Source: an uncultured Eubacteriaceae bacterium
GTDB taxonomy: Bacteria > Bacillota > Clostridia > Eubacteriales > UBA1433
Assembly: GCA_964533615.1 (NCBI GenBank)
Contig: CAZHMK010000005.1
Coordinates: forward strand, 141,218-205,217
Reading direction: 5' to 3'
DNA: 64,000 nt
The notes under the pieces are model-generated. The model had not been told where the DNA came from. It saw nothing but the letters and a program-made list of their open reading frames with translations, and did no database searches. A program made the translations under genes and the position numbers. Of this stretch, positions 3,399 through 55,745 are shown piece by piece. The first letter of the stretch is position 1. Every line of letters begins with the position of its first letter.

Positions 3399-3660
3399 TT
3401 GGCGGGCGTGGGCAGGATCGTTACCCAAAAACTTCCCTGTCGGATTTTTTTAAATACGTTCAGAAAACGTCCCAAGATTTGCAGAAATATTCACAGTAAT
3501 CTGGTTGGATGGGTATCTTATATATATTATTTATTCTATTTATTCCAACACCCGCCCGGCCGGATCTTTCGACTGCGCTCAAGATGACCTCTTTCATCTT
3601 TATTTTTGTATAAGACAACCGGGGGTATCATTCTGAGCATATCCGCGGAGTTGATTGGAT
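3399..3660. repeat. Dispersed repeat family, cluster 1 (inverted doublet, reverse configuration)
   Basis: Contains a diverged core (ccctgtcggattttt..cgttcagaaaacgtcc). It is followed by ccggatctttcgactgcgctcaagatgacc (3559-3589), a spacer, and the inverted core atcattctgagcatatccgcggag (about 3624-3650). Confidence 0.8.
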
Positions 3661-3987
3661 AACTATTCTGCAAAACAAAATAAACAGGCCAGCATCCACC
3701 CAGTTATAGGGGAGGAGCCCCTCTCCCGCTTTCTTTTTTTGCCTAATAAATAATGAATGCAGGCACGTTGAGGATGACACATCATCCCATGATAGGAGGA
3801 AATTTCGTCATCTAAAGAGGATACTGTGTTTGGGCTGGCCGGCGTACAATATATATTTATAGAAAAAATAAGCGTTTGTTTGATTGATACATGAAGAAGG
3901 TTCTTGAATGAGGAGTATTGCAAAGGGCAGGTGATCCCCTGTGATAAAAAGAAATGTTATAGTTCATCCTTCTTAGTAAAGTATAGT

Positions 3988-4593
3988 TCAGTCAAATATT
4001 GAATAGAGGCGAAAATAGAGAGAGTCGATGGGCGTCGAATTATCATTCAAATAGATATCTACGGTGTAAAATCCTGGATAAGCATCCTCTAAAAGAGCGG
4101 AGGTGAATGTCTTTTCAGTAGTATGGCTGATATCTATTTTATCTTCAAAGATAATTTCATCATCCTGCTCCCACACAAATGTGAGATATGTATTTGCCGT
4201 AGCGTTTCGCACGGTAACAGTTGTGTAGAACTGATCGTATGTCCATTCATAATGATTATCTTTGCTATAGTAGGATTCGTCGTTGTCATCGTGTTTTGCA
4301 TATATTTGCGCATTAGAAACTGAAAAAATATTGTTATTATGAATTTTTACAGCAATCAAGATCGCAATAAAAATAATGACAATGATACCTGCAGCAAGAA
4401 CGATTTTTTTATATTCTCTTTTGTTTTGAATATCCTGCAATTGTTTTTGCTTTGCCGTCTTTTCAAGCTCAATACGCTGAAGCTCTTCATTAGGCAGGGG
4501 CTTTTCCGTGCCACAGTATTCGCATATATATACGCCTTTTGTTTCGTTGACGATCATATCGCCGCCGCATTGACTGCATCTTTCTTCGTTCAA
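3988..4593 (-). CDS. Membrane-anchored protein with N-terminal zinc ribbon
   Basis: Zinc ribbon CSQCGG..CEYCG, then one TM helix. The C-terminal domain is related to that of 6705..7148 (YLTFVWEQ / EITFRWFY; FYTVDIYLND / NYSVEIYING). Confidence 0.7.
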   Translation of the reverse strand: MNEERCSQCGGDMIVNETKGVYICEYCGTEKPLPNEELQRIELEKTAKQKQLQDIQNKREYKKIVLAAGIIVIIFIAILIAVKIHNNNIFSVSNAQIYAKHDDNDESYYSKDNHYEWTYDQFYTTVTVRNATANTYLTFVWEQDDEIIFEDKIDISHTTEKTFTSALLEDAYPGFYTVDIYLNDNSTPIDSLYFRLYSIFD

Positions 4594-4979
4594 ATCTATA
4601 TTCCTCCATTACATCACTGAATAGAACTGACCTCTGCTGTTTTTCAGGCAAACAAAAGCAGGGACTTGTCTACTTGTTTTTATGTTACCATTACTGGATT
4701 GAATTCTGCAAATTTATATCAGATTTTTCAATTCGTCCTGAAATTTAAAATATATCAATATTTTTTATTCATAATCGGATATTTGGAATGAATACGAAAT
4801 ACCACAGTTATATGGTATTGATAATACTTGGTTGTACAATACGTTTGCTTGATAGTGCTTAACTTTTACACTGGTTCATATGGTCTGCGTCCAAGCAGTA
4901 AGCCAAATCAAGCTGGGTTTGCGCTCTGACCCAAAATCTTTGTTTTCTATGTATCTATCCGAACCTCTGTGCACTATTT

Positions 4980-5032
4980 AAGGGGCGGGTCTACTTTTCT
5001 TAGCGCGCCAGCCCCTTTGTATTTTGTTATTT
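4980..5032 (+). terminator. Plus-strand intrinsic-terminator-like hairpin with no upstream plus-strand gene
   Basis: aaggggc..gcccctt GC-rich stem followed by tgtattttgttattt. It lies at the end of a 410-bp ORF-free region. Confidence 0.4.
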
Positions 5033-6212
5033 ATTGAATCTCATTGAGAAAATCGATCATGATCTCAATAAAATCATTTGGTTTTTCCCAATTGAAACTG
5101 TGGCCGGAGTCAACCTCTATGAGCACGTTATTTTCTATCAGCAAATGCGCCCGCTCGGCATCCTCACCGCTCATAGCCCCCATAAGAATACCGTTTTCAT
5201 CATACTTCCAATTTGTATGGATCAGGACGGATGGGCATTTGATCTTCGACAGGGCCTCGGCGTGATCAAAGCCTTTCAGCCATGAGCAATCATAGAATGC
5301 ATCGCCAAATCTGGGATCGTAGTCATTCATGAAATAAAATGTCCCGGTAATGGAAGGTGGGAAGAAAAATATTTTTAATCTCTCTTCGGGATGTTTCTCC
5401 CTGTAGGAGACGGCATATCGAATGATTCTTTTTTTCGCATTTCCAAAATAATTGATCCAATAGCAGTTTTCGAGGTAATACAGAGCAAAGTCATCCTCCT
5501 CATTCTGGTTCAGGAATGAATGACATGCCTGAAATGTGTCCACCTGTGCAAATGTTTTATCGCACCGGGAGGCCTCCGTTGAGAAAAGAGGCGGATCCTC
5601 CAGGACAATACCCAATACATTCTCGGAAGAATTGGCGGCAAGCCATGTCGTCAGCAGCCCCCCGGATGAATGACCCGAGACCACTGCCGGTTCACCAATC
5701 ACATTTTCAATAAACCAGGCAAAATCCTCACCCATTGCCTGGCCGCTATATTTCTCCGGGTCTTTGCTGGATTTCCCATGCCCGTGGCAATCCACCGCAT
5801 ACACGTGATAATATTTCGACAATTCCGGGAGTACCTTCGTATACATTCCCCACGCCGCTACTTGTCCGTGGATCAGCAGGAGGGAAGGACCGTGATTGGG
5901 GCCTTCTACATAATTCAAAACCGTTCCATCGTTTAAAGATACCGGCTTTTCCTCATAACCCGCTTCCATCGTCTGCCGGAATGGAACCTTGTCATAATTC
6001 AGATTGTTATACACATATACGGAAGCGAGCGCGATGACCATACACATCAGGATTACGACCGCTGTCAATATGATTGTCAAGTTGTTATACACGGAAGCGA
6101 GCACGATGACCACACATATCAGGATTGCAACCGCTATCAATACTGTTTTCAAGATTTTTTTCTTTTTCTTTTTTGGCTTAATACTGTTTGTGCCGGAAAA
6201 TTCTTTTTTCAT
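5031..6212 (-). CDS. Alpha/beta hydrolase with N-terminal membrane anchor
   Basis: LLLIHGQ, nucleophile elbow GHSSGG and C-terminal DSGH. The N-terminus is Lys-rich with a duplicated TM helix. Overlaps the upstream AbrB-type gene by 4 nt. Confidence 0.85.
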   Translation of the reverse strand: MKKEFSGTNSIKPKKKKKKILKTVLIAVAILICVVIVLASVYNNLTIILTAVVILMCMVIALASVYVYNNLNYDKVPFRQTMEAGYEEKPVSLNDGTVLNYVEGPNHGPSLLLIHGQVAAWGMYTKVLPELSKYYHVYAVDCHGHGKSSKDPEKYSGQAMGEDFAWFIENVIGEPAVVSGHSSGGLLTTWLAANSSENVLGIVLEDPPLFSTEASRCDKTFAQVDTFQACHSFLNQNEEDDFALYYLENCYWINYFGNAKKRIIRYAVSYREKHPEERLKIFFFPPSITGTFYFMNDYDPRFGDAFYDCSWLKGFDHAEALSKIKCPSVLIHTNWKYDENGILMGAMSGEDAERAHLLIENNVLIEVDSGHSFNWEKPNDFIEIMIDFLNEIQ

Positions 6213-6439: not shown

Positions 6440-6462
6440 CCTCCATAGTATTAAGTATGATA

Positions 6463-6510: not shown

Positions 6511-6704
6511 TAAAAAAACGTCAAATGTATGTTTGGAATGAGCTTAGTTCAGATATATCAATAAGCTGTATCCCATTGTTTCCTTACGACTTTTTGTTCC
6601 TTTCATTATTCTACTCCGTAATTCAGCCGGATTTTTCTTTTGGCACTCAAAAACCCCGATATTAAGGGCGAGTTTCACAGCGAGTAGCTTGCTTTGCTAC
6701 ATCT

Positions 6705-7394: not shown

Positions 7395-7525
7395 GAGCTG
7401 ATCTGTTTATTTTGCAGAAAAGCCATACCTGCCAGATTCTTCGACTGTGATCAGAATGACACCGCCCAAGATTTGCAGGCTGGCTCGCAGTAAGGCTGCT
7501 TGGATGTCTATTTAGAATGACACCG
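7395..7525 (+). repeat. Dispersed repeat family, cluster 2
   Basis: cctgccagattcttcgactgtgatcagaatgacac (7429-7463) followed by two diverged or partial cores. Confidence 0.8.
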
Positions 7526-9233: not shown

Positions 9234-9858
9234 ACTACACCTTCCTATCTTTATTTAATATTATAATACGATTATTGCTAATAATATTTTATCACAAAAA
9301 GACATTATATGAAATAATTGTAGGAACGGTTTTTGCAAGAAAACGGTAACAAATTTGATGAGAAAATGAGGAGACGTTTTATAAGAAAAAAGAAAGAGCA
9401 AGCAGTGATGTTTGTTTTGCAGAAAAGATATATAGGAAAGCGCACAGTGAACAGGTTGGTATTTGGTTTGATCGGCTATGCAGTGGACATTGGCTGAAAG
9501 ATTAGAAAGATTTGTGAAAGTTTGATTATTGAAACAAATAATACTTTTCTATCGTATTCTTTGATTATCAGCAGTGACACTGCCTTATAAGTTAGGAGTG
9601 GAGTTGCGAGAGGCCTCTTTAGATAAAAAGAGAACAAGGGATATCTTAAACAGAGTCGAAAGATTGCAGAGGGTATGTGCTAGTCTGATATATTTTAAAA
9701 GAAAGGAAATATTAAGTATGAGCTGAAGGTGTATGCTGAGCTATTAATTTTGCAAAAGAGTTATGATTGCCGGTTCAGTTCATATAAGAGAAAATAAAAT
9801 AATATCAAGCCGTGCCTATTATCGGCGTCCCTGAGGATTGGGGCAGAGAAAGTGAAAG

Positions 9859-10371
9859 CTAATCTCTGTTAAACACCAGCTCCAAGTCTATAATCTCACC
9901 TTTTGAACTTGTCAGTTGTGTATTGATACGCTCTGTAGCGCCGCCGTCGTAGGTGAACTGAATAAAATAATAAGGTTCGATCAGATCAATATATTGCTGC
10001 GGTGAACAGTCCATAATATATTTATTATTTTCATCGAATAAAGACATATAGCCTGTGTTTTGATTTTGACTGCATTCACATGAATTAGAACCCCAATTGA
10101 TTTGTGTGATTCGCAGATTCTCTATATCTTCCTCTCCGATATACTTAATCTCATAACGCGTTGCCATTTGTAATTTTTCATCACCGAAAGTGATGCCTTT
10201 CGGTACTTTGGGGCTGCCGTCGTACTCAAGCTGTACACGAACATTGACTTCATAGTTTTCATTCCCGCCTGCATAATTGCGGTAGACGGATACTGTTTTC
10301 CCGCATGATGTAAAGCTGAGAAGTAACAAGCAAAGGAACAGACACAGTAAAAAAATTTTTATTTGTTTCAA
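9859..10371 (-). CDS. Lipoprotein, family member 1
   Basis: Signal peptide with lipobox LSFTSC. Tandem paralog of 10387..10911. Confidence 0.8.
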   Translation of the reverse strand: MKQIKIFLLCLFLCLLLLSFTSCGKTVSVYRNYAGGNENYEVNVRVQLEYDGSPKVPKGITFGDEKLQMATRYEIKYIGEEDIENLRITQINWGSNSCECSQNQNTGYMSLFDENNKYIMDCSPQQYIDLIEPYYFIQFTYDGGATERINTQLTSSKGEIIDLELVFNRD

Positions 10372-10386: not shown

Positions 10387-10911
10387 TTAGTTTTGAGTAG
10401 TTTTTTCTGTAAACACTAAATCTAAGTCTGTAAGCTCGCCTTTTGAACTTGTCAGTTGTGTATTGATACGCTCTGTAGTGCCGTCGGCGTAGGTGAATTG
10501 CACGTAATACGCATGCTCGGTGATATCAATTGTTTGCATTGAATCTTTTGTGCTGTATTTATTATCTTCATCAAATAAATTCATATAGCCGCCGATTTGG
10601 TTTTGACTGAGCAAATAGTATTTATTCCCCCATTCTACTCCGGTAATTTGCAGATTTTCCACATCTTTTGTGCCGATATACGTGATATCATAATACATCA
10701 TAGTCGTTAAATTCTCATCATCATACATCAGGCCTTTCGGCACTTTGGAACTGCCGTCGTATTCAAACTGTATACGGACACTGACTTTATAGTTTTCATT
10801 CTCGCCTGCGTAATTGCGGTAGACGGATACTGTATTTTTACAAGAAGTAAAGCTGAGAAGCAAAGCAGACAGGAATAAAAATAACAGTAGTTTTTTTGCT
10901 TGTTTTAACAT
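10387..10911 (-). CDS. Lipoprotein, family member 2
   Basis: Signal peptide with lipobox LSFTSC. Shares VSVYRNYAG.NENY, LFDE.NKY and ERINTQLTSSKGE with its neighbour. Confidence 0.8.
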   Translation of the reverse strand: MLKQAKKLLLFLFLSALLLSFTSCKNTVSVYRNYAGENENYKVSVRIQFEYDGSSKVPKGLMYDDENLTTMMYYDITYIGTKDVENLQITGVEWGNKYYLLSQNQIGGYMNLFDEDNKYSTKDSMQTIDITEHAYYVQFTYADGTTERINTQLTSSKGELTDLDLVFTEKTTQN

Positions 10912-14689: not shown

Positions 14690-15065
14690 GAGGGGCTGTG
14701 ATATATTTTATAAGCAAAACCATTCCGCCGGATTCGCAGGCGTGCTCAGAATGACGGTGTTAGGTTTTACGATATGTATTGTTAAGAAGATCAAAAGAAT
14801 AATTTGCCAAAGCTTGTTTGCATTACAGAGTATGTGCCGTTCATTGCCGGATTTACAAATGATGTTTGCAAGGATGTTATTCTTATTTTTCAATTCCTTT
14901 TTTCAATACTTTAAACTCATCCCCTTTCCTCCATCCAACCGGATCTTTCGACTGCGCTCAAGATGACCCTGCTGTTTTCTGTTTTATATGGTTGATATGA
15001 TGATCATCATTGAGAAAGCCCGCCTTATCAGATTCGCAGGCTGCGCTCAGAATGATACTGCCTTG
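14690..15065 (+). repeat. Dispersed repeat family, cluster 3
   Basis: Cores at about 14721-14757 (gattcgcaggcgtgctcagaatgac), 14936-14969 (ccggatctttcgactgcgctcaagatgacc) and 15019-15058. Confidence 0.8.
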
Positions 15066-21949: not shown

Positions 21950-22560
21950 TGTTTTTTCTTCAGAAAATTTGCCCTGCCGGAAGAGCAGGCACGTTTAGCA
22001 TGATATCTGTTCAGTTTGTAAAAAGAAAGTGAGTCTATTGGCTATTGAGAGGAGGGTGTTGTAAGGGCGGGTGAACGCAGGAAAGCTCCTATGATTGCAT
22101 GTAAAGCTGGAGAATGATTGATTATTTGAAGAAAAGCCCTTCGCAGGATCTGTAGGCACGCTCAGAATGATACCATTTTGTTTTTCAAAGAGTGGGTGAA
22201 CGTAGTTCGGGTGTTTGGATTGGTTTAATATGCATTATAAAAAGGAAGGCAGTCGGTTTTTAGATAAAAAATAATTACCGGGGATGAGAGCGGGTTGATA
22301 ATTTATGAAAAGAAATCCAATTTTCCAGATTCTTGGACACGTTCAGAATGACACCATACTATCTGTCGAGGAGCGTGCGAATCCCGGTGAGGGGGTTTGG
22401 ATTGGGGCTAATATGTATTATGTATCGGGTAGTTTGATGATTTTATAAGAAGACACTCCACCCTGCCGAATTCTCAGACCGGCTTAAAATGACGCTGCCT
22501 CTTGATTTATATTAAACAGACAGAAGAGAGTCATCTTAAGATTTACGCGAGGAGCGGGTA
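21950..22560 (+). repeat. Dispersed repeat family, cluster 4 (diverged ~180-bp modules)
   Basis: Cores at about 21971-22007, 22137-22173, 22321-22354 and 22459-22496. The flanks are conserved (..atttgaagaaaagccc.. / ..ggtttggattgg..taatatg.attat..). Confidence 0.75.
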
Positions 22561-34973: not shown

Positions 34974-35002
34974 GATTGGGGAAAACAAAAAATTAAAAAA
35001 TA

Positions 35003-35827
35003 TTATACAGGATTTAAATTCGGAGAATAGAACATTACTTCTGTTCCTTTGTAAGAGGTATTCGCACTGTATTTAATAGTATATTCTCTACTTATATAAT
35101 CTTGATAAATTTGTTTTATTTCATCAACGTTATCATATGTTACTATCCATTTATGATTAAGTTTTGCTATTTCTTTTGCTAATGTAATATGATTATTTGT
35201 ATCATAATAATTCGTATATAGTTCTTTGCCCTTATAAAAATAAGGTGGATCTAAAAAAATAAATATATTATTATGATTGTCTAATTGATGAAAGAATTCA
35301 ATTGCATCTAAATTGTAAAAATGTATTTTGTCTTTATAACTATCAATTAAATTTAATTTTTGCAGTATACTTTTTTTGTTAAATCTACAATTTAATTTAT
35401 AATTCCCGTTTTGATTGTATCCACCAATAGGCCCAGCAGTTATTATACCTGAATGATTCGTTCTATTCAGAAATAATGTTGAAAAAGCTAATTCAAATAA
35501 CTCGGCTGTGCTTTTGTTATTTTGAATTTCTTTTTGTTTATACCATTCATTAATAGTTATGTCCGTTGAAATTATTTTTTCACATAGTTTGTCATTATTT
35601 GTTAACACTGTATTCCAAAAAGCATAGATACTTCTGTCAATATCATTAAGAATGATATTGTCTACAACTTCATTATTTAACAATGCCAGGGCTAAACCGC
35701 TCCCACCTGCATATGGCTCAACATATGTACATCCTAATAAATTATTTTTTTCAATTAGACTTTGTGTATAATTATATAATTGTGTTTTGCCACCAGGGTA
35801 TCTTAATGGCGATAATGTTATAGGCAT
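35003..35827 (-). CDS. Dam-class (D12) N6-adenine DNA methyltransferase
   Basis: LRYPGGK, EPYAGGSG (AdoMet motif) and FLDPPY (catalytic motif IV). RBS aaggag. Confidence 0.9.
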   Translation of the reverse strand: MPITLSPLRYPGGKTQLYNYTQSLIEKNNLLGCTYVEPYAGGSGLALALLNNEVVDNIILNDIDRSIYAFWNTVLTNNDKLCEKIISTDITINEWYKQKEIQNNKSTAELFELAFSTLFLNRTNHSGIITAGPIGGYNQNGNYKLNCRFNKKSILQKLNLIDSYKDKIHFYNLDAIEFFHQLDNHNNIFIFLDPPYFYKGKELYTNYYDTNNHITLAKEIAKLNHKWIVTYDNVDEIKQIYQDYISREYTIKYSANTSYKGTEVMFYSPNLNPV

Positions 35828-35886
35828 ATTAAGCTCCTTAATATAAATGTTAGTATAAAAATTTTATTATCATTAAATATTTCAAT

Positions 35887-37242
35887 TTATTTTGACCAGA
35901 GAATAGTAATTAAATTAGAAAAATTATCCCAAGTCAGCAATAAATCTTTTGGGATAGGATTAAAATTTTTGTTATGTACATATGAATTGAAAGTTCGCAT
36001 TGAGAAAATACTATTTTTGTTGGAAATGGCAATATCCATTGGTTTTATTGCATCATTGGTTAATGATTGTTTTCCTTTAACATCATTTATCACTTTTGAA
36101 AATTTATTTCTTAAGTTGTCATCTATAGAATAATTAATATTATTTATATCTAAATAATGTTCTATCGATAATTCAATAAAAACCCTAAGTAAAACAGCCA
36201 CAGCATTTGAATATTTTTCGATTTCCATACTTCTAAGCTCGAAATATATATTATTTAATCTATTATCTGTAATGCTCAATTTATAATTTGCCGGAATCAA
36301 TGTATTGCGTTCATACGAAGGTTTAATATTCCGTTTATGCATAATTTTGGAAGTATCAGTTATCTTTTTATCAGCACTTTCTTCTAATACAGGTGTTACA
36401 TTATTCATACTTTTTTCAAATGGCAATACTTGATTAGATTGTAAATTTGTATTTTCAATTGTTTTAGCCTGCAAATTAGATTTAGCAGAAAGATTATGTA
36501 TGAATTCTTCTATGGCAGGATTATCATAAACAATTTTAACAGTTTTACCTTTTAACTCATCTGCAATAGTTTTAATTTTTGATGCAAATTCTTTTTCATC
36601 ATTAATAATTAATTGACCATTTTTATAATCAAATTTAGCAAAATTTTGAGTAATTGGTCTGGTTAAAATTCTCTCCCAATTAGTTCTTGTAACTGAATTG
36701 ATTTCATTAGAAGTTAAATATTTATTTTTTTCTAAAAAATTTAGTGTGTTTTGCAAAGGTGTATTATGGCCTCTTAAATACTTAAATCGATCCTTTTGAG
36801 TCGAACCCCAAGTAATTAAACCTCGGCCGCTGTCTTCGCCAATATGCCTTCGCTCTAAAAAAATCATAAGCTGTTCTATTTCATTTTCTTTAAAAATAAA
36901 GGCAGGAATTTCATTTCCATAAGATATATCAGACAAACTTAAAGAGGAAAATTTTCTAAAATATTTTTTATTAGTTTTTATTAAATCAGGATTTGATAAT
37001 ATTTTTAACGCAGTAATTCTTCTATTGCCATCATAAACAGTGAGTTTATTATTATATTTATATACAGCAATCGTTTCTATTATTCCATTTTTGCATATAT
37101 CTTCAGCTAATTTATATATTTTATCGGGCAATGTTTCAATCATTTTTTCTATAGATAATTTTTCGTTATCTAAGGGTTCAAACCTAGGATTTTCATTCCA
37201 AAGATATAAGTCACTAAGTTTTATATAATCAAGTTCAGGCAT
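35887..37242 (-). CDS. ParB/Srx-fold N-terminal domain protein with unassigned ~300-aa C-terminal region
   Basis: LWNENPRF and VYDGNRRITALK are ParB-type motifs. The C-terminal helical region carries MRTFNSYVH (R-x6-H). RBS ggagg. Confidence 0.7.
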   Translation of the reverse strand: MPELDYIKLSDLYLWNENPRFEPLDNEKLSIEKMIETLPDKIYKLAEDICKNGIIETIAVYKYNNKLTVYDGNRRITALKILSNPDLIKTNKKYFRKFSSLSLSDISYGNEIPAFIFKENEIEQLMIFLERRHIGEDSGRGLITWGSTQKDRFKYLRGHNTPLQNTLNFLEKNKYLTSNEINSVTRTNWERILTRPITQNFAKFDYKNGQLIINDEKEFASKIKTIADELKGKTVKIVYDNPAIEEFIHNLSAKSNLQAKTIENTNLQSNQVLPFEKSMNNVTPVLEESADKKITDTSKIMHKRNIKPSYERNTLIPANYKLSITDNRLNNIYFELRSMEIEKYSNAVAVLLRVFIELSIEHYLDINNINYSIDDNLRNKFSKVINDVKGKQSLTNDAIKPMDIAISNKNSIFSMRTFNSYVHNKNFNPIPKDLLLTWDNFSNLITILWSK

Positions 37243-37299
37243 ATTTACCTCCGCATTGATATATTTAATTATAGCAAAAAAGTATTAGTTAATCGATAT

Positions 37300-39054
37300 T
37301 TAAAATAGAAGGTTTAATTTTCTATTTTCATTGTCTGTTGTTAAAGCAAGCATGGATATTAATTCTATATTTTGATTTTCGAAATTGTTTCGTTGGGGTC
37401 TATATGTTAAATCTTCGTCTGAGATAGATTCAATTAAATAATGAGGAGCCAAAGCATTATATGATATAAGAAATTCAGAATTAAAATTAAAAATTTCTTC
37501 GGTTCGTTCATTTAATATGTACTTAAAAATATTATGATTAGTATCAATATAAAAATATTTATAGTAATTATTAAACCATTCTTTTTGTTTTTTTCTTGAT
37601 CTTGTTGGGTATGGATTACAAGAACTTATAAAATGATCTTTTGTGTAAGTATTATATCGATTTAATGTCCAAAACTCGTGCTCATCTTCTAAATTATCTA
37701 AAAATTGATAAATGTATTTTTCTGGATTTAAATTGCTAGGTAAAAAAGTAATATTTTCAGGGAAGTCAGTTTTATTATAAGACCTCATTAATTTTTTCAA
37801 ATTATCACGTGCATCACCATCTAATAAAAGTATTGATGTATTTATCTCTTCAATACTTTCATTCAAAAATAATCGAATTAATTCATTACATCCTAATTCA
37901 GTTACTTTAATATATATATTATTTATAAAAATAGGGGCTAAAAGATTTAATGCTATTATTTGCGCTTCATTATCTTCGACAAATACTTTAATTTTCGGGA
38001 GTTCTTGGCTTATTAAGTTTAAATGATTTTTAATAGATAAAAAAGGTGGATTAGATTCAGATGTTATTTTTGTTGAATTTTTTCTTAAATAAATTATTTC
38101 AATATTATCATGAGTTTTTTTATCTTTTATAGAATTTTGTCGCATTTGATAGCTTTCTTCAATAATATGTGTAGAGTGAGTAGTAATGATAAATTGAATG
38201 TTATCTTTTGATGCAATTCGATTTAAAAAATTTATTAAATTTTTTTGTACTGGAGGATGAAGTGATGACTCTATTTCATCTATTACGAATACGGCTCCTT
38301 TATAATCGGTTCCTTGTTTTGATTTTACTCTTCTAATAGATAAAATCATTAGTAGTATTTTTCCTATTACATCTTCGCCAGATGACATAGATCTATAATC
38401 TCTATTCTCAAAAATTATATTAGCGGTATATTTAATACTAGATTTTAATGAGGATATCTTTTTAATATGTTCTCGTTTTAATAATATTTCATTATACCAA
38501 TTATGATATAAATTTAATTCTTTTTCATCAAGTTGAATTTCGGAAATTTTTATGCTTTTATCATCTATTTTTGATAAAGGAAATAATCTGTCTAAATACA
38601 ATGCCGCAACTGGTATGTCTTTTATGAAACCGCTACCTTTTGTTCTGGTTTCAGTCCAAACTCTTAGTTTTTTTGCTGATGAGTCTTTTCTTAATTCAGA
38701 TTTATAGGTATAAAAACCATTTTCGTTTATTTCAGTATTTAAAAAATTAATTTTTGCCCATAAACAATCTTCTTTATCATATTCTGGGTATGCTAATTTT
38801 ATGTTTTTTTCAAATTTTCCTTCTAAATATTGTCCATCGATGCTTATATAAGTTTTAGGTGGATATTTTTGATTTGCACTTTTCCTCGAATTATTAAATG
38901 GTTGTATGAGTAAACCTAGTATTGTAGATTTCATAGTACCATTATAGCCAGAGATTATAGTAATATTCTGGCCTAAAGTTATTTCAAAATTTTTTAAATC
39001 TCTAAAATTTGCTTCCAAACTTTTGATTATCATAAAAATTCCTATCGCTTTCAT
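37300..39054 (-). CDS. OLD-family-like protein: ABC/SMC-type ATPase plus C-terminal Toprim/DUF4435-like module
   Basis: P-loop ISGYNGTMKST, Walker B VFVIDEIESSLHP and IITTHSTH. The C-terminus has KVFVEDNEAQ and ILLLDGDARD acidic motifs. The alternative start Met 39033 fits family N-termini (MIIKSLEANFRDL). Confidence 0.65.
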   Translation of the reverse strand: MKAIGIFMIIKSLEANFRDLKNFEITLGQNITIISGYNGTMKSTILGLLIQPFNNSRKSANQKYPPKTYISIDGQYLEGKFEKNIKLAYPEYDKEDCLWAKINFLNTEINENGFYTYKSELRKDSSAKKLRVWTETRTKGSGFIKDIPVAALYLDRLFPLSKIDDKSIKISEIQLDEKELNLYHNWYNEILLKREHIKKISSLKSSIKYTANIIFENRDYRSMSSGEDVIGKILLMILSIRRVKSKQGTDYKGAVFVIDEIESSLHPPVQKNLINFLNRIASKDNIQFIITTHSTHIIEESYQMRQNSIKDKKTHDNIEIIYLRKNSTKITSESNPPFLSIKNHLNLISQELPKIKVFVEDNEAQIIALNLLAPIFINNIYIKVTELGCNELIRLFLNESIEEINTSILLLDGDARDNLKKLMRSYNKTDFPENITFLPSNLNPEKYIYQFLDNLEDEHEFWTLNRYNTYTKDHFISSCNPYPTRSRKKQKEWFNNYYKYFYIDTNHNIFKYILNERTEEIFNFNSEFLISYNALAPHYLIESISDEDLTYRPQRNNFENQNIELISMLALTTDNENRKLNLLF

Positions 39055-39127
39055 GTTTAAGACATTATTAAAAAATAAAATAATGACAGCGGAATCTGTC
39101 TTTTTTTAAAAGCATTATTTACTAATA

Positions 39128-39156
39128 ATTATAGTAAAATTATGTCGAAATGTCAT
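39128..39156 (-). promoter_or_regulatory. Promoter of the three-gene island
   Basis: On the minus strand: ATGACA (39151-39156), a 17-nt spacer, then TATAAT (39128-39133). Confidence 0.5.
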
Positions 39157-40229: not shown

Positions 40230-40510
40230 GATAAAAAAACAAAAGGGGTCATCTTGAGTGCAGTCGAAAGATCCGGCGGGTTGGGGTTGGTATGAGTATT
40301 TTGTGAAGAAGATAATCTGCCCCGCCAGATTCTTCGACTATGCTCAGAATGACACCAAGGTTCGGGTGGTGATGTTGGTCTGCACATACTATATAAGATA
40401 GCCGTCCCGCCAGATTCTTCGACACGCTCAGAATGACACAGGCCCATCAGATTCGCAGGCACGCTCAGAATGACACCGTCCCCAAGGTTCGGCTGGCAGA
40501 GGTTTTATCC
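40230..40510 (+). repeat. Dispersed repeat family, cluster 5
   Basis: Inverted variant ggtcatcttgagtgcagtcgaaagatccgg (40246-40277), then cores at 40318-40354, 40404-40439 and 40442-40476. Confidence 0.85.
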
Positions 40511-41574: not shown

Positions 41575-41845
41575 GCCTAATTATTATTGCGAGAGAGTCT
41601 GCCCCGCCAGATTCACAGGCACGCTAGTGACACCAGCCCCAGGGTTTGGTAGGTGCTGGGTCTGTTTGAATTGCAGAATACACCTACTCCTACCAGATTC
41701 TTCGACACGCTCAGAATGACACTGCCCCATCAGATTCTTCGACTATGCTCAGAATGACACCGCTTCATCAGATTCGCAGGCACGCTCGCAGTGACGCCAG
41801 CCTCTTGTATGATAAAAATAGAGAAAGTCGTCTTGAACGAGGGCT
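41575..41845 (+). repeat. Dispersed repeat family, cluster 6
   Basis: Cores at 41600-41633, 41688-41722, 41724-41760 and 41763-41797, plus a degenerate inverted unit reaching the stop codon of 41844..42500. Confidence 0.85.
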
Positions 41846-42500
41846 AGATGTATTTACTGCCTTCTTTGATGCTCAGCTTTGAAAGCTTGTATTCGTATTT
41901 GGCGATGAAGCCTCTTACCCATGCGGGATCGGTTTTGCTGTATTCTCTCAGACTCCAGCCGATGGCTTTATTGATAAAAAATTCTTCCGTGCCGAAGTTG
42001 TTGCAAAGTATTTTTAAAAGCAGTCCGGTATCGGTTTTTTCTTTTAGGCCGAGCTGGTGCAAAATAGCTGTGCGGCGCAGCCACATATTCTCATCCGTGC
42101 TCCACTTTATCATCATGTCGGATACGTGCGGATAGGAAAGAGAAAGCGTGCCGAAAAGTTTGCTTAGGATATCGACCGTATCCCACCACGATTTTGTGGT
42201 GAGGAGCATCTTCAGCTGAGGGATATCGGCGTCTGTGAGATATTTTTGTTTTGAGAGGACATAGTCGGAAGCGATGTACTGCGCTTCGCGATAGGGCTTT
42301 TCCCAGCAGATTTTCACAAACTCCCAGTCGATGTGTTTTTCACCTCTGACGAGTTTGAAATACCGATTTGCTATTTTTCTTCGCGCAGCGCTTTGTATGC
42401 CCAAAAAGGGAAACAGGTTTTTCATGTAAGCGCTCATGGCGGCGGCGGTGGATTTGTTTTCCGATTTTTCAAGTTCTTCAAACAGGGTTTCGTACCACAT
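41844..42500 (-). CDS. DNA alkylation repair protein (AlkC/AlkD-type HEAT-repeat family)
   Basis: AAAMSAYMKNLFPFLGIQSAARRKI and WWDTVD...NMWLRRTAIL..INKAIGWSLREY are typical of this family. Confidence 0.8.
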   Translation of the reverse strand: MWYETLFEELEKSENKSTAAAMSAYMKNLFPFLGIQSAARRKIANRYFKLVRGEKHIDWEFVKICWEKPYREAQYIASDYVLSKQKYLTDADIPQLKMLLTTKSWWDTVDILSKLFGTLSLSYPHVSDMMIKWSTDENMWLRRTAILHQLGLKEKTDTGLLLKILCNNFGTEEFFINKAIGWSLREYSKTDPAWVRGFIAKYEYKLSKLSIKEGSKYI

Positions 42501-42539
42501 GGTTTGCTCTCCGTTTTTAGAATATTTTAGATGAATTAA

Positions 42540-43052
42540 TCATTCATGATAGTAATCATTTTGCCACTGCAATGGATTTGAATGAATATATTCCTTGATT
42601 TTATCATAATCTTTCTGACCACGGATAATATGGTCATGAAAAGAACGCTGCCATAACGGTCGACCATATTGCTTAGAGGTGATGGTTTTGAATGAATTTA
42701 TTATTTTAGATATGGAGATTGTAGGGGACGCCGCCCACGGCGTCCCGTCTTTTTGTAATAAAATAATCATATGAATATGATTAGGCATAATAACATATGC
42801 ATCAACAGACACATGTTTATATACATCAGGGATGTTTAATACTATTTTTTGAACCATCTCACCGGTAGGGCTCAATATGATCTGCGGGAGGCTGTAGGCA
42901 GCCTCTCCTACGTTTTCTTGAGCGAGATATCCTTCATCCCATAAAATTGCTTGTCTATCTTTGGTGCAGATGGTTATAAAATAGGCACCATTGCTGCTGT
43001 AGTCGTAATCGTGCAAGCGGTTGGCTTTTCGGGTAGGTTGTTTATTTAACAT
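42540..43052 (-). CDS. IS200/RAYT-like Y1 (HUH) transposase-family protein
   Basis: YFITICTKDR, the HUH motif in YVIMPNHIHMIIL, WQRSFHDHIIR and EYIHSNPLQW. 170 aa. Repeat arrays lie on both flanks. Confidence 0.8.
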   Translation of the reverse strand: MLNKQPTRKANRLHDYDYSSNGAYFITICTKDRQAILWDEGYLAQENVGEAAYSLPQIILSPTGEMVQKIVLNIPDVYKHVSVDAYVIMPNHIHMIILLQKDGTPWAASPTISISKIINSFKTITSKQYGRPLWQRSFHDHIIRGQKDYDKIKEYIHSNPLQWQNDYYHE

Positions 43053-43194
43053 TTTTAACCTGTATAAATAGTTTATTTACTATTATTTTACAGTGAATGT
43101 GTTATTTAGTAAAGAAAGATAATGGCAAAATGATATAAATGAATGAGTAGGCATAATGCAAGGGATATCGTTGATATGTTTAGGGTATAGAAAA

Positions 43195-43812
43195 TATTTT
43201 TCACGCCAGATTGGCAGGCATGCTCGCAGTGATGCTCGTCTCGTGTGTTGGCGTTTGTATGTCGATTTTGTAAAAAGGATGCGAGAGAGCGGGAGGCTGA
43301 GGGCAGCCTCCCCTACGGTTATGTATTCCATTTGATATTTGATTTGGTAAATGGCAAGATTTATAAGCATGTTGGTCTGATTATTTTATAGAGAATACCC
43401 ACCTTGCCAGATTGGCAGGCATGCTCGCAGTGACACAAACCCCTTGTTTGATAAAAACGAGAGGGGTCATCTTGAGCGCAGTCGAAAGATCCGGTGGGTT
43501 GGGGATGGTATGAATATTTTATGAAGAAGATAATCTGCCCCGCCAGATTCTTCGACACGCTCAGAATGACACTGCTCCCAGGGTCCGGTTGGAGTTGGTC
43601 TGCTTGAATTGCAGGATACACCCACTCCCATCAGATTCTTCGATACACTCAGAATGACATTGCGCCGCCAGATTGGCAGGCATGCTCAGAATGACACCGA
43701 CCCATCAGATTCTTCGACTATGCTCAGAATGACACTGCCATTCAAGGTTCGGGGGGCGTTGGTATGAATATTTTATGAAGAAGATATCTACCCCATCAGA
43801 TTCTTCGATATA
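43195..43812 (+). repeat. Dispersed repeat family, cluster 7 (about 8 cores including one inverted doublet)
   Basis: Cores at 43201-43234, 43398-43436, inverted 43463-43494, 43536-43572, 43626-43660, 43663-43697 and 43700-43736, plus a truncated one at 43790-43810. Confidence 0.9.
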
Positions 43813-43857: not shown

Positions 43858-45339
43858 TCAGGGCAGGTGAATTGTTTTCGTTGCCACGGAGCGGGTAAAA
43901 AAGCTGTCATGCTCCACGAAGAGAATGGTCGGCTCAAATGAGAGCAGGAGCTGCTCTATTTGCATGCGTGAAAAAATGTCGATGAAATTGAGCGGCTCAT
44001 CCCAAATGTGCAGGTGTGCCTTCTCGCACAGGCTGGAGGCGATAAGCACTTTTTTCTTTTGCCCTTCGCTTAGTGAGGCCATATCTTTTTCAAACTGCGT
44101 TTTTGTGAAATCGAGTTTTTGCAGGATCGCTTTAAAGAGACTTTCGTCGATGGCTTTGCGCGCGGCATGCTCCGTCAGGCTGCCCGAGAGAGCGGTGGTA
44201 TCCTGCGGCACATAGGAGATGAGCAGTCGGCTGCCTTTGTTGAAACTGCCCGTATAAGTTAGATCTTCTCCGCAGATGAGCTTTAGGATGCTGGATTTGC
44301 CCGAACCGTTGCCGCCTGTAAGCGCGATGCGATCCCCTTGCTCGACCGTAAAAGAGATATCTTTACAGGCACAGTGAGCGCCGTAGTAGACAAAGACTTT
44401 ATCAAGCGCCGCGAGCTGCCGTTTGTGATAGACAAGCTGAGAAATTTTTAAGCTGTGCATGCTCTCCACATTTTTTAAAAGTTTGGATTTTTCTTCTATG
44501 GCCGTCTGCGCCCTTGCCTCGATGACTTTTGAGGTTTTCATCATCTTGGCCGCTTTATGGCCGACGTAGCCGCGGTCGGGGCGAAGACCCGAATTTTTTG
44601 TATTGTATTTTGCTTTTTCTGCTTTATTTGACCAGCGCGATGTACGAAGAGAGGACTCGGTGAGGCGGCTGAGTTCTCTCTTCAGTTTCTCGTTCTGCGA
44701 TATCTCAAATTGATCCTGCATGATTTTATTTTCGTACCAACTTGAAAAATTACCTTTTTGCAGTTGTATATCCGCCTTGTTGATCGAAAGGATATGATCG
44801 ATGCAGCCGTCGAGAAAAGCCCTGTCGTGCGAGACTAGGATGTATGATTTTTTGGATTGCAGGTAACGGCTCAAAAGGCTTCTCGCCTGCGCATCCAGAT
44901 GGTTGGTGGGCTCGTCGATGAGCAAAAGATTATTTTCTTTTAGAAACATCACAGCCAGCAGCACTTTGGTCTGTTCACCGTTGCTGAGTGTGTCAAACGG
45001 CCTGTAGAGCACATCCTCGCTCACTTGCAGCAGGGAGCATTCCCGCACAAGCTGCCAGTGTTCGCAGGCGGCGTGTATGCCGTTTGCGACATCGATCGTT
45101 AAACTCTCCTTATCTTCTATTTCATACGGAAAATATTCAAAATCGACCGCTGCGGTAACGGCGCCGTGGTGGGGAAGTTCGTTTTGCAGCAGTTTTAAAA
45201 AGGTAGTTTTGCCACGGCCGTTTCTTCCCGCGAGGCCGAGACGCCAGGAGCTGTCCAGCCTGAGAGAGACATTTTCAAAAACGGGGTCATAAGAGCCCTC
45301 ATAGGTAAAAGTGAGATTATTTATATTAATTTGCGACAT
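43858..45339 (-). CDS. ABC-F ATPase (Lsa/ARE-like ribosome-protection type)
   Basis: Two NBDs (GRNGRGKTT / GGNGSGKSS; LSNGEQTKV / LSEGQKKKV), no TM domain, and an interdomain linker. Start set to Met 45339 after RBS ggagga. The N-terminus MSQININNLTFTYEGSYDPVF is Lsa-like. Confidence 0.8.
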   Translation of the reverse strand: MSQININNLTFTYEGSYDPVFENVSLRLDSSWRLGLAGRNGRGKTTFLKLLQNELPHHGAVTAAVDFEYFPYEIEDKESLTIDVANGIHAACEHWQLVRECSLLQVSEDVLYRPFDTLSNGEQTKVLLAVMFLKENNLLLIDEPTNHLDAQARSLLSRYLQSKKSYILVSHDRAFLDGCIDHILSINKADIQLQKGNFSSWYENKIMQDQFEISQNEKLKRELSRLTESSLRTSRWSNKAEKAKYNTKNSGLRPDRGYVGHKAAKMMKTSKVIEARAQTAIEEKSKLLKNVESMHSLKISQLVYHKRQLAALDKVFVYYGAHCACKDISFTVEQGDRIALTGGNGSGKSSILKLICGEDLTYTGSFNKGSRLLISYVPQDTTALSGSLTEHAARKAIDESLFKAILQKLDFTKTQFEKDMASLSEGQKKKVLIASSLCEKAHLHIWDEPLNFIDIFSRMQIEQLLLSFEPTILFVEHDSFFTRSVATKTIHLP

Positions 45340-45363
45340 AAGACGTAGTATCCTCCTAAAAAT

Positions 45364-45405
45364 GATTATGAGCCGCAAGAAAATGAATTCCCGCAGCTCA
45401 TAATC
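45364..45405 (-). terminator. Attenuator hairpin immediately upstream of the ABC-F RBS
   Basis: On the minus strand: gattatgagctgc-loop-gcggctcataatc (12 of 13 bp) followed by cattttt and then aggagg. Confidence 0.6.
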
Positions 45406-46904: not shown

Positions 46905-47000
46905 TGGAACCATCAGATTTTTGACGCGCTCGCAGTGATATCCGCCCTGCGATTGAACGAGGGGGAGGTCTTTTCATATTGAAGGAGGGGTTACGAGTGC
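46905..47000 (+). repeat. Dispersed repeat family, cluster 11 (single core plus linker module)
   Basis: ccatcagatttttgacgcgctcgcagtgatatc (46911-46945), then gggaggtcttttcatattgaaggagggg. The latter recurs at about 53958 and 55305. Confidence 0.65.
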
Positions 47001-49904: not shown

Positions 49905-50700
49905 GTTTGCTATGCATAATTTTATATAAGATACCTGTCCCGCCAGATTCTTCGACTGCGCTCAGAATGACACCGTCCCCAGGTTTTTGATGATGTTCAG
50001 AATGACACCGTCCCCAGGGTTTGATTGGTGTTGGTCTGTTTGAATTACAGGATATACCTGCCCCGCCAGATTCTTCGACACGCTCAGAATGACGCTGCCC
50101 CCAGGGGACGGTTGGTGTTACTCTGTTTGAATTACAGGATACACCTGCCCCGCCAGATTCTTCGACTACGCTCAGAATGACATCCACCCGTGTTTAACGT
50201 GAGGATGGTTGAATAATTTTATATAAGATACCTGCCCCGCCAGATTCGCAGACACGCTCGGAGTGACACTGCCCCTGGAGTTCGGCTGATGTAGGTCTGA
50301 TTATTATTGCGAGAAAGCCTGCCCGTCGGATTCGCAGGCTGACACAAGTCTCTTGTCTGATATAAAAAAGAACGAAAAGGGGTTATCTTGAGCAGGGTCA
50401 AAAGATCCGGTGGGTTAGGGATTAGGCATAAGAAAGTAAGAAAGATTGAATGTGGGTTGGATCGATGTGCAAAATTTGATACATTAGAGAGCAGTTTGAT
50501 AATTTTATATGAAATACCTGCCCTGCCAGATTCTTCGACGCGCTCAGAATGACACCGGTCTCAGGGTTCGGTTGGAGTTGGTCTGTTTAAATTACAGAAT
50601 ACACCTACTCCCGACAAGATTCTTCGACTACGCTCAGAATGACACCGTCCCCCGGGTTTTTGATGATGTTCAGAATGACACCTGCCTCAGGGCTCGTATT
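49905..50700 (+). repeat. Dispersed repeat family, cluster 8 (largest, about 11 cores)
   Basis: Cores at 49936-49972, 49984-50008, 50058-50094, 50146-50181, 50232-50269, 50318-50345, inverted 50378-50410, 50518-50554, 50607-50645 and 50655-50680. The array ends about 20 nt before the GtrA stop codon. Confidence 0.9.
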
Positions 50701-53279: not shown

Positions 53280-53309
53280 GGATATGAAAAAGCAGAGAGG
53301 CCGATATCA

Positions 53310-53465
53310 ATGAGCGCGCCGAAAAGCACATGCTACAAATGCAAAAGAAGAAAGGCGGGATGCCACAGCGTATGCGCGGACTATATCGCCTATCGCAGAG
53401 AGCATGAGGCGTATCAAAGGATTATTTTGGAAAAGAAACAAAAAGAAGCATTGCTCTACAAATAG
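53310..53465 (+). CDS. Small Cys-rich phage-type protein (51 aa)
   Basis: MSAPKSTCYKCKRRKAGCHSVCADYIAYRREHE... The ORF is below the track cutoff and was read manually. Confidence 0.45.
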   Translation: MSAPKSTCYKCKRRKAGCHSVCADYIAYRREHEAYQRIILEKKQKEALLYK

Positions 53466-53475
53466 GAGCGGGAAA

Positions 53476-53937: not shown

Positions 53938-53944
53938 GGCAAGG

Positions 53945-54410
53945 GTAGTCTTGCATGAGTGGGAGGTCTTTTGCATATTGAAAGAAGGGTATTGGAGAGG
54001 GGCATGATGATTTGAAGAGAGAAAAATCGTCCCCGCCAGATTCTTCGACTACGCTCAGAATGACACTGCCCCCTGGGTTTGGTTGGCGTTGGTCTGTTTG
54101 AATTATAGGATATGCCTAGTCCCGCCAGATTCTTCGACTACGCTCAGAGTGACACTGCCCCAGTTTTTTGATGATGTTTAGAATGACACCTGCCCAGGGT
54201 TCGGCCGGTGTGGGTCTGATTATTATTGCGAGAAAGTCTGCCCGTCGGATTCGCAGGCACGCTCAGAATGACATCCACCCGTGTTTAATGCATGCAAGGT
54301 TGATTTAAAAATTTTATATAAAATATTTACCCTGCCAGATTCTTCGATATACTCACAGTGACACCTGCCCTCGATTTTTTGATGATGTTCAGAATGATAG
54401 CTGCCAGTGG
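53945..54410 (+). repeat. Dispersed repeat family, cluster 9
   Basis: Cores at 54029-54066, 54119-54155, 54162-54189, 54237-54273, 54329-54364 and 54373-54400. Confidence 0.9.
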
Positions 54411-54557
54411 AAGGGAGTTGTAAGAGAGGACGAGCAATGCTGAGGCAGGTGTTAGTCTGATATATATCAGATAAGATACTTGTGCAGTCAGGTGCGGCGA
54501 ACGAAAGAGGGGGTGGTATTTAAAGTATGATATGGTATAGTAGGGATAACATTCGCA

Positions 54558-55298
54558 ATGTATATGAGGTATGAAATGGAACGTTTATATATTCGGCAGT
54601 TGAAAATCGGCGGCCTTGATGAAAGCGCATATACCGCGCATCTGCCTGTTATGCGGTGGCTGATCGAAGCGGGAGAGTTCGCCTTTGAAAAACAAGTGAC
54701 ATTTTTTATTGGTGAGAACGGAACGGGAAAATCCACGCTCATAGAAGCCATAGCCCTTTGCGCCGGATTTAACGCGGAAGGAGGCTCGAAGAATTTTAAC
54801 TTTTCTACAAAGCAAACCTCTTCTGATGTATATAAATCCATTACGCTCGTAAAAGCGGCATATGAAAAAGACGGTTTTTTTCTGCGAGCGGAAAGCTTTT
54901 ATAATGTCGCCACACAGGTAGACGAGCTGGAACTGAGCTTAGAAGGATACGGAGGATGCTCGCTGCATGAGCAATCCCACGGTGAGAGTTTTATGGCGCT
55001 GGTTCAAAACCGTTTCAGAGGGGAAGGACTTTATATTTTGGACGAGCCCGAAGCGGCCTTATCACCGTCGCGGCAAATGGCGCTGCTTGCGGAGATGAAA
55101 AGACTTGCGGATGAAGATTCCCAGTTTATCATTGCGACGCATTCGCCGATTTTGCTCGCTTATCCCGGTGCCGATATTTATCAGATCAGTGAGGACGGTA
55201 TTGAGAAGGTGGCTTACCGGGAGTGTGAACACTACAGGCTCACAAGGGATTTTTTGAATCAGCCCGAGCGAATGATGCATTATTTGTTTCATGAATAA
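54558..55298 (+). CDS. Stand-alone ABC/SMC-like AAA ATPase (~245 aa family)
   Basis: FFIGENGTGKSTLIEAI, HEQSHGESF, LYILDEPEAALSP and IIATHSPILL. Confidence 0.75.
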   Translation: MYMRYEMERLYIRQLKIGGLDESAYTAHLPVMRWLIEAGEFAFEKQVTFFIGENGTGKSTLIEAIALCAGFNAEGGSKNFNFSTKQTSSDVYKSITLVKAAYEKDGFFLRAESFYNVATQVDELELSLEGYGGCSLHEQSHGESFMALVQNRFRGEGLYILDEPEAALSPSRQMALLAEMKRLADEDSQFIIATHSPILLAYPGADIYQISEDGIEKVAYRECEHYRLTRDFLNQPERMMHYLFHE

Positions 55299-55299
55299 T

Positions 55300-55745
55300 G
55301 CGAAAGTCTTCTACATATTGAGAGAAGAGTGTTGGAGGGGGTATGATGACGTGAAGAAAAACCGTCCCCGACAGATTCTTCGACACGCTCAGAATGACAC
55401 CTGCCTCTTGTCTGATATAAAAAAAATGAGGGGGTCATCTTGAGCAGAGTCGAAAGATCCGGTTGGATAAGGATGGGGTGTGAGAGAGCGGGAAAGATCG
55501 GGGTGTAGGCTGGACTGATATGCAGAAGCTGATGTGTTCGAGGATGGAGAAGGGTATAATTATTTGAAGAAGAAAAACCGTCCCCGACAGATTCTTCGAC
55601 ACGCTCAGAATGACACTGCCCCCTGGGTTCGGTTGGTGTTGGTCTGTTTGAATTACAGGATATGCCTAGTCCCGCCAGATTCTTCGATACACTCACAGTG
55701 ACACTGCCCCCGGTTTTTTGATGATGTTCAGAATGATAGCTGCCC
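55300..55745 (+). repeat. Dispersed repeat family, cluster 10
   Basis: Cores at 55364-55400, inverted 55432-55462, 55579-55616, 55669-55705 and 55712-55738. Confidence 0.9.

Follow-up and report, generated by a model that had tools for sequence, protein, structure and literature searches.

The closest described counterpart of the DNA considered here is the Ssn system of Neisseria meningitidis. Its nuclease, SsnA, is a single-domain GIY-YIG protein of 94 amino acids (aa; domain cd10448), and its target, the NTS repeat (CGTCATTCCCGCGMAVGCGGGAATCYRG), is a superset of the dRS3 repeat (Chenal et al. 2025, Nat Commun 16:2388, PMC11893778). SsnA binds the NTS only as single-stranded DNA (ssDNA), accepting neither double-stranded DNA (dsDNA) nor RNA nor the opposite strand, and cleaves a few nucleotides (nt) upstream of the repeat, 5′ of GTCAT; ssDNA-only binding and the upstream cut have been shown for both the Neisseria and the Wolbachia enzymes. 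The C just 3′ of the palindrome is the top base for binding and the three nucleotides 5′ of the palindrome are the top ones for cleavage, the identity of the loop being dispensable. In Neisseria, SsnA reduces transformation by NTS-carrying DNA and the recombination of incoming ssDNA with the repeats. Such repeats were generalized as Ssn-related motifs (SRM): at least one lies near 71% of ssn homologues, and 42% have them on both sides. The NTS-ssnA-NTS arrangement was likened to an insertion sequence and the system compared with REP/RAYT/BIME. The motif is searched with the string HGTCWYN(0-2)YYVSBRHN(0-5)WNVSBRGN(0-2)RNCYNB, an operational tool built from 29 genomes; the reported hosts are mostly Gram-negative, and tandem arrays, replication strand and Firmicutes are unmentioned (PMC11893778). 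The present analysis concerns a family of short repeats, the cores, in a 64-kb stretch of DNA (hereafter the window) from an uncultured Eubacteriaceae bacterium (contig CAZHMK010000005.1), in which the cores are chained into arrays between genes.

Very probably, the cores are Ssn-type hairpin repeats, that is, a local and highly amplified family of ssDNA targets of a GIY-YIG Ssn nuclease of about 94 aa. They are placed in the Ssn/SRM (NTS, dRS3) system because the core conserves the flanks GTC and C, flanks ssn genes and covaries. A previous, sequence-only reading of the window had held the family to be of interest provided that it was uncatalogued and had copies elsewhere. It is not uncatalogued, since it belongs to the system published in 2025 (PMC11893778), nor is it confined to one genome, as the core occurs in Armatimonadota, Chloroflexota, Dehalococcoidales, cyanobacteria and other Firmicutes.

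A dense and modular family of hairpin repeats

The family is a modular, intergenic hairpin repeat of about 30 bases whose density lies far above chance. The 12-mer GCTCAGAATGAC has 40 matches with at most 2 mismatches in the window against 4.05 expected, a count that none of 100 dinucleotide-preserving shuffles reached. A gapless scan with a 33-nt core and at most 11 mismatches returned 27 sites, as opposed to 0-2 in shuffles. An iterated nhmmer core model, which is blind to the ATCTT/AAGAT ("D") class, recovered 36 cores (E<0.05), of which 31 are full length. When the arrays are inspected visually and copies of the D type or in decay are counted as well, the total rises to about 50 cores at 11 intergenic sites, or about 0.8 per kb, which bears out the number given in the sequence-only reading. 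All 11 arrays that it had listed were found where it placed them, between long open reading frames (ORFs); their extent, estimated at roughly 4.3 kb, sums to 4354 nt by its coordinates, some arrays including non-repeat stretches. Its description of a modular architecture with linkers is matched by tandem periods of 37-38 nt and 87 nt (Tandem Repeats Finder), with near-identical units (87-88% matches), and by the recurring linkers that the repeat finder recovered. The 87-nt unit consists of a core plus the linker L1.

Read on the complementary strand, the core runs GTCA + ATTCT - GA - G..C - GA - AGAAT + C, which comprises a 5-bp lower stem, a conserved 2x2 internal loop, one or two upper G-C pairs and a small loop. 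The internal loop is GA/GA on the GTCAT strand and TC/TC on its complement, the strand shown in the window. When read along GTCAT, the canonical core combines a GNA triloop of the GCGAAGC type with tandem G.A pairs, known stabilizers of DNA mini-hairpins. Four classes can be distinguished: class A (CCAGATTCTTCGAC(T)ACGCTCAGAATGAC) with a perfect stem, class B (...GATTCGCAGGCACGCTCAGAATGAC and ...GATTGGCAGGCATGCTCGCAGTGAC) with imperfect stems, class C (...GGTTTTTGATGATGTTCAGAATGAC), which pairs solely through G.T, and class D (CCGGATCTTTCGACTGCGCTCAAGATGAC) with a perfect stem of different sequence. Nearly all D cores face a core of class A or B, either head-to-head across an A-rich spacer (43406-43495, 55367-55463) or tail-to-tail across the linker L2 (40246-40356, 43466-43572). 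The flanks are well kept: on the + strand, GAC follows the stem in 28 of the 31 full-length cores and G precedes it in 28 of 31, so that the - strand reads GTC...C.

The compensatory change between ATTCT/AGAAT and ATCTT/AAGAT, first pointed out in the sequence-only reading, is real, and the attcgcagg and attggcagg classes indeed lack a perfect stem; 17 of the 31 full-length cores are complementary at all five positions. Covariation was examined in an alignment of 114 distinct sequences. It contains 79 cells changed on both sides compared with 23 +/- 7 in shuffles (0/500 reach it), and 88% of its cells are paired as opposed to 22-47% when the partner columns are slid. A flank column that the search pattern had left unconstrained is at least 90% conserved across lineages. 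The distance between the two stem halves ranges from 9 to more than 40 nt, the inserted DNA is self-complementary, and the upper stem is longer where the insert is longer, which argues for an intra-strand hairpin rather than for half-sites at fixed spacing on duplex DNA. An asymmetry between G.T and A.C mismatches (16 vs 5) is a suggestive pointer, and only that, to the strand that folds.

Linkage to the GIY-YIG gene across phyla

An exact search with CCAGATTCTTCGACNNGCTCAGAATGACA (one genome per species) recovered an Armatimonadota chromosome, a Chloroflexota metagenome-assembled genome (MAG), a Dehalococcoidales MAG and a Eubacteriaceae MAG. An ORF of the Chloroflexota locus, encoding a 123-aa GIY-YIG protein, shares its 3′ end with the core; the C-terminus of the protein, PQILRQAQNDK, is translated core. 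This protein has thousands of relatives, and in about one third of the best 120 GIY-YIG homologues terminal extensions are translated core-like repeats, among them ILRQAQND, ETLRFAQGD, DSSLRSE*, DPSLRSG*, VILSETKNL, VILSETKNLGEG and CHSERSEES. Back-translation of the extensions gives a common loop with differing, mutually complementary stems. For annotation this carries a warning, as the arrays yield spurious ORFs and false N- and C-terminal extensions on many database GIY-YIG proteins.

Eighty metagenomic loci encoding relatives of the nuclease, whose domain was trimmed and aligned, were fetched. Nearly every gene in them is bracketed by two repeat copies with the GTCA ends outward, the upstream copy being tGTCATyCTGAGCgnaGCGAAGrATCtc and the downstream one its reverse complement, GAGATyCTTCGCtnCGCTCAGrATGACa. 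A motif pattern anchored solely on the loop-side constants and GAC produced 211 matches with 5/5 complementary stems, and none in shuffled loci; the matches comprise nine stem sequences (ATTCT, ATCCT, ATGCT, ACCCT, ATTCC, ATCCC, ACTCT plus two less frequent ones). Close to the gene (within 150 nt) the motif density amounts to about 3.3/kb in the dominant orientation and about 5/kb in both, as compared with 0.02-0.12/kb per orientation beyond 1 kb, a 30- to 100-fold excess near the gene. One orientation prevails upstream (39 vs 21 copies, then 15 vs 2 in the bin that follows), the opposite one downstream (39 vs 21). The hairpin with the GA/TC internal loop is present in 64 of the 80 ssn loci.

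Ssn homologues flanked by the same hairpin class are also found in Firmicutes bacterium HGW-Firmicutes-15 and on a plasmid of Planktothrix agardhii; the class is therefore widespread and not a local oddity. On the latter plasmid (p1, NZ_LR882964.1 18456-19513), the arrays on either side of the gene are made of GTCATTCTGAGTGAAACGAAGAATC, and the ssn homologue sits in a defence island, between a type IIL MmeI restriction-modification gene and DISARM drmA. The ssnA homologue of Neisseria gonorrhoeae is itself flanked by NTS copies. It lies on a 2.17-Mb record labelled plasmid (NZ_CP119142.1), the size of which suggests a chromosome. This homologue is covered by a 71-aa ORF only, its N-terminal part apparently being out of frame, and the gene may be frameshifted.

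A close relative carrying the ssn gene

Two loci of the Eubacteriaceae MAG, L002 and L006, show 87-97% nucleotide identity to the window in syntenic DNA and share its cores and linkers. The synteny of L006 covers window positions 34.3-44.8 kb, in reverse orientation. The arrays of L006 enclose two GIY-YIG (ssn) ORFs that are identical in sequence and in flanks. The 94-aa product of the ORF at L006 2722-3003 matches the Pfam GIY-YIG model with E = 1e-17 and is 47% identical to the N. gonorrhoeae SsnA homologue (E = 3e-28). A 99%-identical protein in the same arrangement occurs in six JGI metagenomes, which sample and contig numbers suggest to belong to the same sample series as the window.

The first ssn copy of L006 occupies the site at which the window has a D core and the L2 linker (~40246-40320, array 5). 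The left boundary (...GAAGAATCYGGCKGGG) and the right boundary (ATGACCC...) are common to both. Judged from these alignments, array 5 and L006 differ by the presence or absence of ssn inside an inverted core pair. A 37-nt core of the window is missing from L006, which is a copy-number difference at the level of the unit. The strain comparison of individual arrays recommended in the sequence-only reading reveals, for this relative, both unit-level copy differences and presence/absence differences at array edges. That the L2 linker is a remnant of the ssn 5′ untranslated region was considered and dropped, the local alignment reaching p = 0.05-0.1 at best against shuffles.

Larger segments differ as well. 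Window positions 41839-43406, carrying the genes of a DNA alkylation repair enzyme and of a RAYT, are absent from L006 and are bracketed by two direct core(+)/spacer/D(-) doublets; the arrangement would be consistent with recombination between the doublets. Positions 34981-39156 form a low-GC island (25-35%), at the position of which L006 has an array, ssn and another array. From its genes (Table 1), the segment looks like a defence island. A further 6.6 kb (56798-63369), encoding an 848-aa FtsX-like permease, a histidine-kinase fragment and a response regulator, is missing from L002; no arrays were noted at its edges.

Strand bias and a possible mechanism

Among the A, B and C cores, 35 of 36 lie on the + strand (binomial p = 1e-9), the sole exception being the A-type core at 3624-3657 in array 1. 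Core orientation does not change from the arrays at 40-46 kb, whose neighbouring genes are on the - strand, to those at 54-56 kb, whose neighbours are on the + strand. As the GC skew is positive over 1-58 kb, the cleavable GTCAT (-) strand would be the leading-strand template, which is less exposed as ssDNA at the fork. The skew suggests that the cleavable strand is kept on the leading-strand template.

By analogy with the Neisseria and Wolbachia enzymes, the Ssn nuclease would bind the hairpin as ssDNA, on the GTCAT strand only, and cut a few nucleotides 5′ of it. The arrays may have grown as units made up of core and linker (37-38 nt and ~87 nt), and likewise inverted core doublets, were duplicated or copied by gene conversion; placement of GTCAT on the leading-strand template would limit self-cleavage, and the arrays could serve as junctions for cassette exchange between strains. 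A wider proposal is offered tentatively and is considered possible rather than likely: that the cores represent a distinct, widespread class of Ssn targets with an internal loop, overlooked by the published string, which in this Firmicute has expanded into BIME-like arrays whose cleavable strand is kept almost exclusively on one replication strand by selection against self-cleavage at the fork, and at whose edges cassettes differ. The cassettes found to differ at array edges are the ssn gene, the pair of RAYT and DNA-alkylation-repair genes, and the methyltransferase/ATPase island.

Several observations weigh against assigning the cores to the Ssn system or against this proposal. No ssn gene was found within the 64-kb window. 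The published SRM string fails on every window core and on each of the five core classes tested singly. It also matches 0 of the 80 ssn loci of the clade, while finding 6 sites in a 1.5-kb Neisseria control locus; the string misses the window class because the stem is interrupted by the 2x2 internal loop. Nearest-neighbour folding of the window cores gives -0.7 to -0.8 kcal/mol, no better than shuffles, where the same calculation gives -11 kcal/mol for the Neisseria NTS. The support for a hairpin therefore lies in covariation and not in predicted stability. The stem is imperfect in 14 of the 31 full-length cores, so that many copies, among them those of classes B and C, are probably decayed and would be poor substrates. 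In stretches from IMG/VR that carry the canonical core, ssn is nearby in only 1 of 92; since most copies are solo, the link between gene and repeat is one-directional. Gene orientation in the window is mixed, and GC skew is the single basis of the replication-strand reading. Finally, as regards the spread of the repeats, a hydrolytic GIY-YIG nuclease alone cannot carry out strand transfer.

The Ssn/SRM system, first described in 2025, is extended by this window in several respects. A large class of Ssn-associated hairpins, present in several phyla, escapes the published definition of the motif, and surveys based on the SRM string therefore probably undercount the system. The strand bias provides a testable link between an ssDNA-only nuclease and replication. 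Together with its cognate Ssn, each hairpin class would be a candidate sequence-specific ssDNA cutter for biotechnology, an idea taken from the original description (PMC11893778).

Alternative explanations

The most durable alternative, unlikely as it seems, is that the arrays are orphan relics: the strain would have lost its nuclease, and inactive repeats would persist as recombination substrates or slippage-prone DNA. The ssn gene is absent from the window exactly where the relative carries it, degenerate cores are numerous, and 19% of genomes with more than 200 SRMs have no ssn homologue (PMC11893778). Set against this are the perfect stems of 17 of the 31 full-length cores, the retention of both flank determinants in 28 of 31 and the near-identity of the tandem units (87-88% matches), which points to recent turnover; moreover, the search for ssn covered 64 kb, and the contig extends to at least 419 kb.

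A second alternative would make the cores REP/BIME elements (REPINs) mobilized by the RAYT encoded in the window, a field of work that is reportedly owed to Nunvar 2010, Bertels & Rainey 2011 and Ton-Hoang 2012. ORF 42540..43052(-) does encode a RAYT-like Y1 transposase: Pfam Y1_Tnp matches with E = 4e-7, NCBIfam REP_Tyr_transpos with 72.9 bits at a cut-off of 80, and the best solved structure is E. coli TnpA_REP (4ER8). The gene belongs to a cassette of two genes between arrays 6 and 7, on each side of which stands an inverted core doublet reminiscent of a REPIN, and the mosaic of cores and linkers resembles BIMEs. However, this RAYT owns separate hairpins of the GTAG type, and a scan for GTAG plus hairpin returned just three strong candidates in the window, all in or beside the gene (Table 1), whereas the abundant cores lack GTAG and have GTCA instead. 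The RAYT homologue of Chakrabartyella is likewise flanked by GTAG hairpins, the 182 loci (1.2 Mb) selected for cores or ssn genes contain no RAYT homologue, and the relative carries its 86%-identical RAYT at another locus with no cores beside it. These four points argue that the RAYT is not the partner of the cores, which are strongly associated with GIY-YIG genes. As the sequence-only reading had surmised, this is not an ordinary REP/BIME family, and mobilization of the cores by the RAYT of the window is improbable. Unusually, two of the hairpins lie inside the RAYT ORF, in inverted orientation, where they code for VGEAAYSLP and DGTPWAASPT. The pair is also present in the relative and in Chakrabartyella piscis, and at the protein level VG(E/D)...P and ...SPT recur across the clade.

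Even less probable is a role of the cores at the RNA level, as terminators, transcript stabilizers or small RNAs, for which one could cite that they are intergenic hairpins, some of them directly after stop codons. Yet the cores keep their orientation whichever way the neighbouring genes run, the hairpin is not followed by a T-run, the predicted folding is weak, and Neisseria SsnA does not bind the RNA form (PMC11893778). A terminator role was rejected because no predicted terminator falls on any core, and a tRNA or tmRNA origin because none was found. The Rfam search called for in the sequence-only reading, run with 4227 covariance models, found nothing at the gathering score either in the window or among 20 related loci; on the largest array, relaxing the threshold to E = 5 likewise brought no match. 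Orientation that does not track transcription, the lack of terminator features and the lack of an Rfam match together speak against such a role. Equally hard to sustain is the idea that the cores are inverted half-sites of a dsDNA-binding protein (an operator or nucleoid-protein site), for although the two 5-nt half-sites co-vary between lineages, as they would with a dimeric dsDNA binder, they are anywhere from 9 to more than 40 nt apart, the DNA inserted between them is self-complementary and extends the stem, and the associated protein is a nuclease for which binding to ssDNA only has been demonstrated (PMC11893778).

Inventory of the arrays and other genes of the window

Table 1. Repeat arrays and associated features, in positions of the 64-kb window
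Feature	Position	Strand	Description
Array 1	3399..3660	mixed	decayed cores, then D-type core on + (3556-3590) facing A-type core on - (3624-3657); inverted doublet
Array 2	7395..7525	+	full A-type core 7428-7463, then decayed B-type core, partial 3′ half
Decayed doublet	9566..9672	mixed	+ remnant ...cagcagtgacac, spacer, decayed D-type core on - (gggatatcttaaacagagtcgaaagatt)
Array 3	14690..15065	+	B-type cores 14725-14755 and 15028-15058; D-type core on + 14935-14970
Array 4	21950..22560	+	4-5 diverged cores (22153-22174, 22325-22355, 22463-22495, others); decayed D(-) remnant at end
D12 adenine methyltransferase (island gene)	35003..35827		
Unknown 451-aa protein (island gene)			
PtuA/AAA_15-like ATPase (island gene)	37300..39054		
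Array 5	40231..40510	+	D-type core on - 40246-40275, L2 linker, A 40321-40355, A 40406-40439, B 40443-40476
Array 6	41575..41845	+	B-like core, L1 linker, two A cores in 38-nt tandem, B core, spacer, decayed D(-)
GTAG-type hairpin	42721-42748	+	inside RAYT ORF
GTAG-type hairpin	42886-42911	-	inside RAYT ORF
Array 7	43195..43812	+	B cores 43204 and 43406; D(-) 43466-43495; then A, A, B, A, truncated A
GTAG-type hairpin	43290-43316	-	upstream of RAYT; unrelated GTAG-type REP held within array 7
Array 8	46905..47000	+	one decayed core, 46910-46940
Array 9 (largest)	49905..50700	+	A, C, A, A, B, partial B; D(-) ~50383-50412; then A, A, C
Array 10	53945..54410	+	A, A, C, B, A, C cores; flanked by two + strand genes
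Array 11	55300..55745	+	A core, spacer, D(-) 55434-55463, then A, A, C

The statement of the sequence-only reading that some arrays abut stop codons stands for the + strand array at 41575-41845, which reaches the stop codon of ORF 41844..42500(-). The possible decayed copy that it placed near 9405-9480 is more convincing at ~9566-9672, where it takes the form of a core(+)/spacer/D(-) doublet.

The linkers contain promoter-like hexamer pairs, all of them weak matches to the consensus: TTGGTA-18-GATAAT, e.g., at 40287-40316(+), and CTGGCA-16-TAAAAT, which occurs three times (43410-43383, 50529-50502 and 54338-54311, all -). CTGCCCC is found on both sides of the core; it is not claimed as a target-site duplication, as the 37-38-nt tandem unit explains it equally well. 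A 152-aa ORF, 55289..55747(-), spans all of array 11 and is almost certainly spurious.

Adjoining array 7, positions 43858-45378 (-) encode a Lsa-family ABC-F ribosomal-protection protein (716 bits; family cut-off 750). The ORFs 9859..10371 and 10387..10911 (-) are adjacent tandem duplicates, 76-80% identical and about 540 nt apart; Pfam gave no match for ORF 9859..10371, the one of the two that was scanned.

Comparison with known systems

With REP/BIME-RAYT systems the family shares short intergenic hairpins in hundreds of copies, mosaics with linkers, inverted doublets, a small nuclease gene bracketed by inverted copies, and the fact that most copies are solo. It differs from them in the partner enzyme, which for the cores is a GIY-YIG and not an HUH/Y1 protein, and in the lack of the GTAG tetranucleotide; the RAYT of the window has a separate, low-copy family of GTAG hairpins. 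The subterminal hairpins of IS200/IS605 elements, which PMC11893778 cites too, offer a further parallel, being recognized strand-specifically as ssDNA; an orientation bias linked to replication would be expected. Both systems are strand-specific and act on ssDNA hairpins. In contrast to IS200/IS605, the units in the window are far smaller and have neither a strand-transfer transposase nor defined element ends with cleavage sites.

The closest resemblance is to SRM and the NTS. In both cases the partner gene encodes a single-domain GIY-YIG protein of about 94 aa, and GTCAT, palindrome and C follow one another in an oriented fashion on both sides of the gene. Copies are intergenic, clustered and distributed across phyla, and the loop tolerates extension. 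The window core is an inverted repeat within the 20-50 nt hairpin range, its predicted free energy being weak. Despite these likenesses, the stems are built differently: that of the window comprises 5+1-2 bp with a GA/GA (TC/TC) 2x2 internal loop, whereas the NTS and the Rhizobium version have continuous stems of 8-9 bp, GC-rich in the NTS, and the predicted stability is about -1 as opposed to -11 kcal/mol. The repeats of the window also stand apart by their head-to-tail arrays with conserved linkers, their 35:1 strand bias and their Firmicute host. What goes beyond the published description is thus a hairpin class missed by the search string, its organization in tandem arrays with linkers, the strand bias and the cassette differences at array edges.

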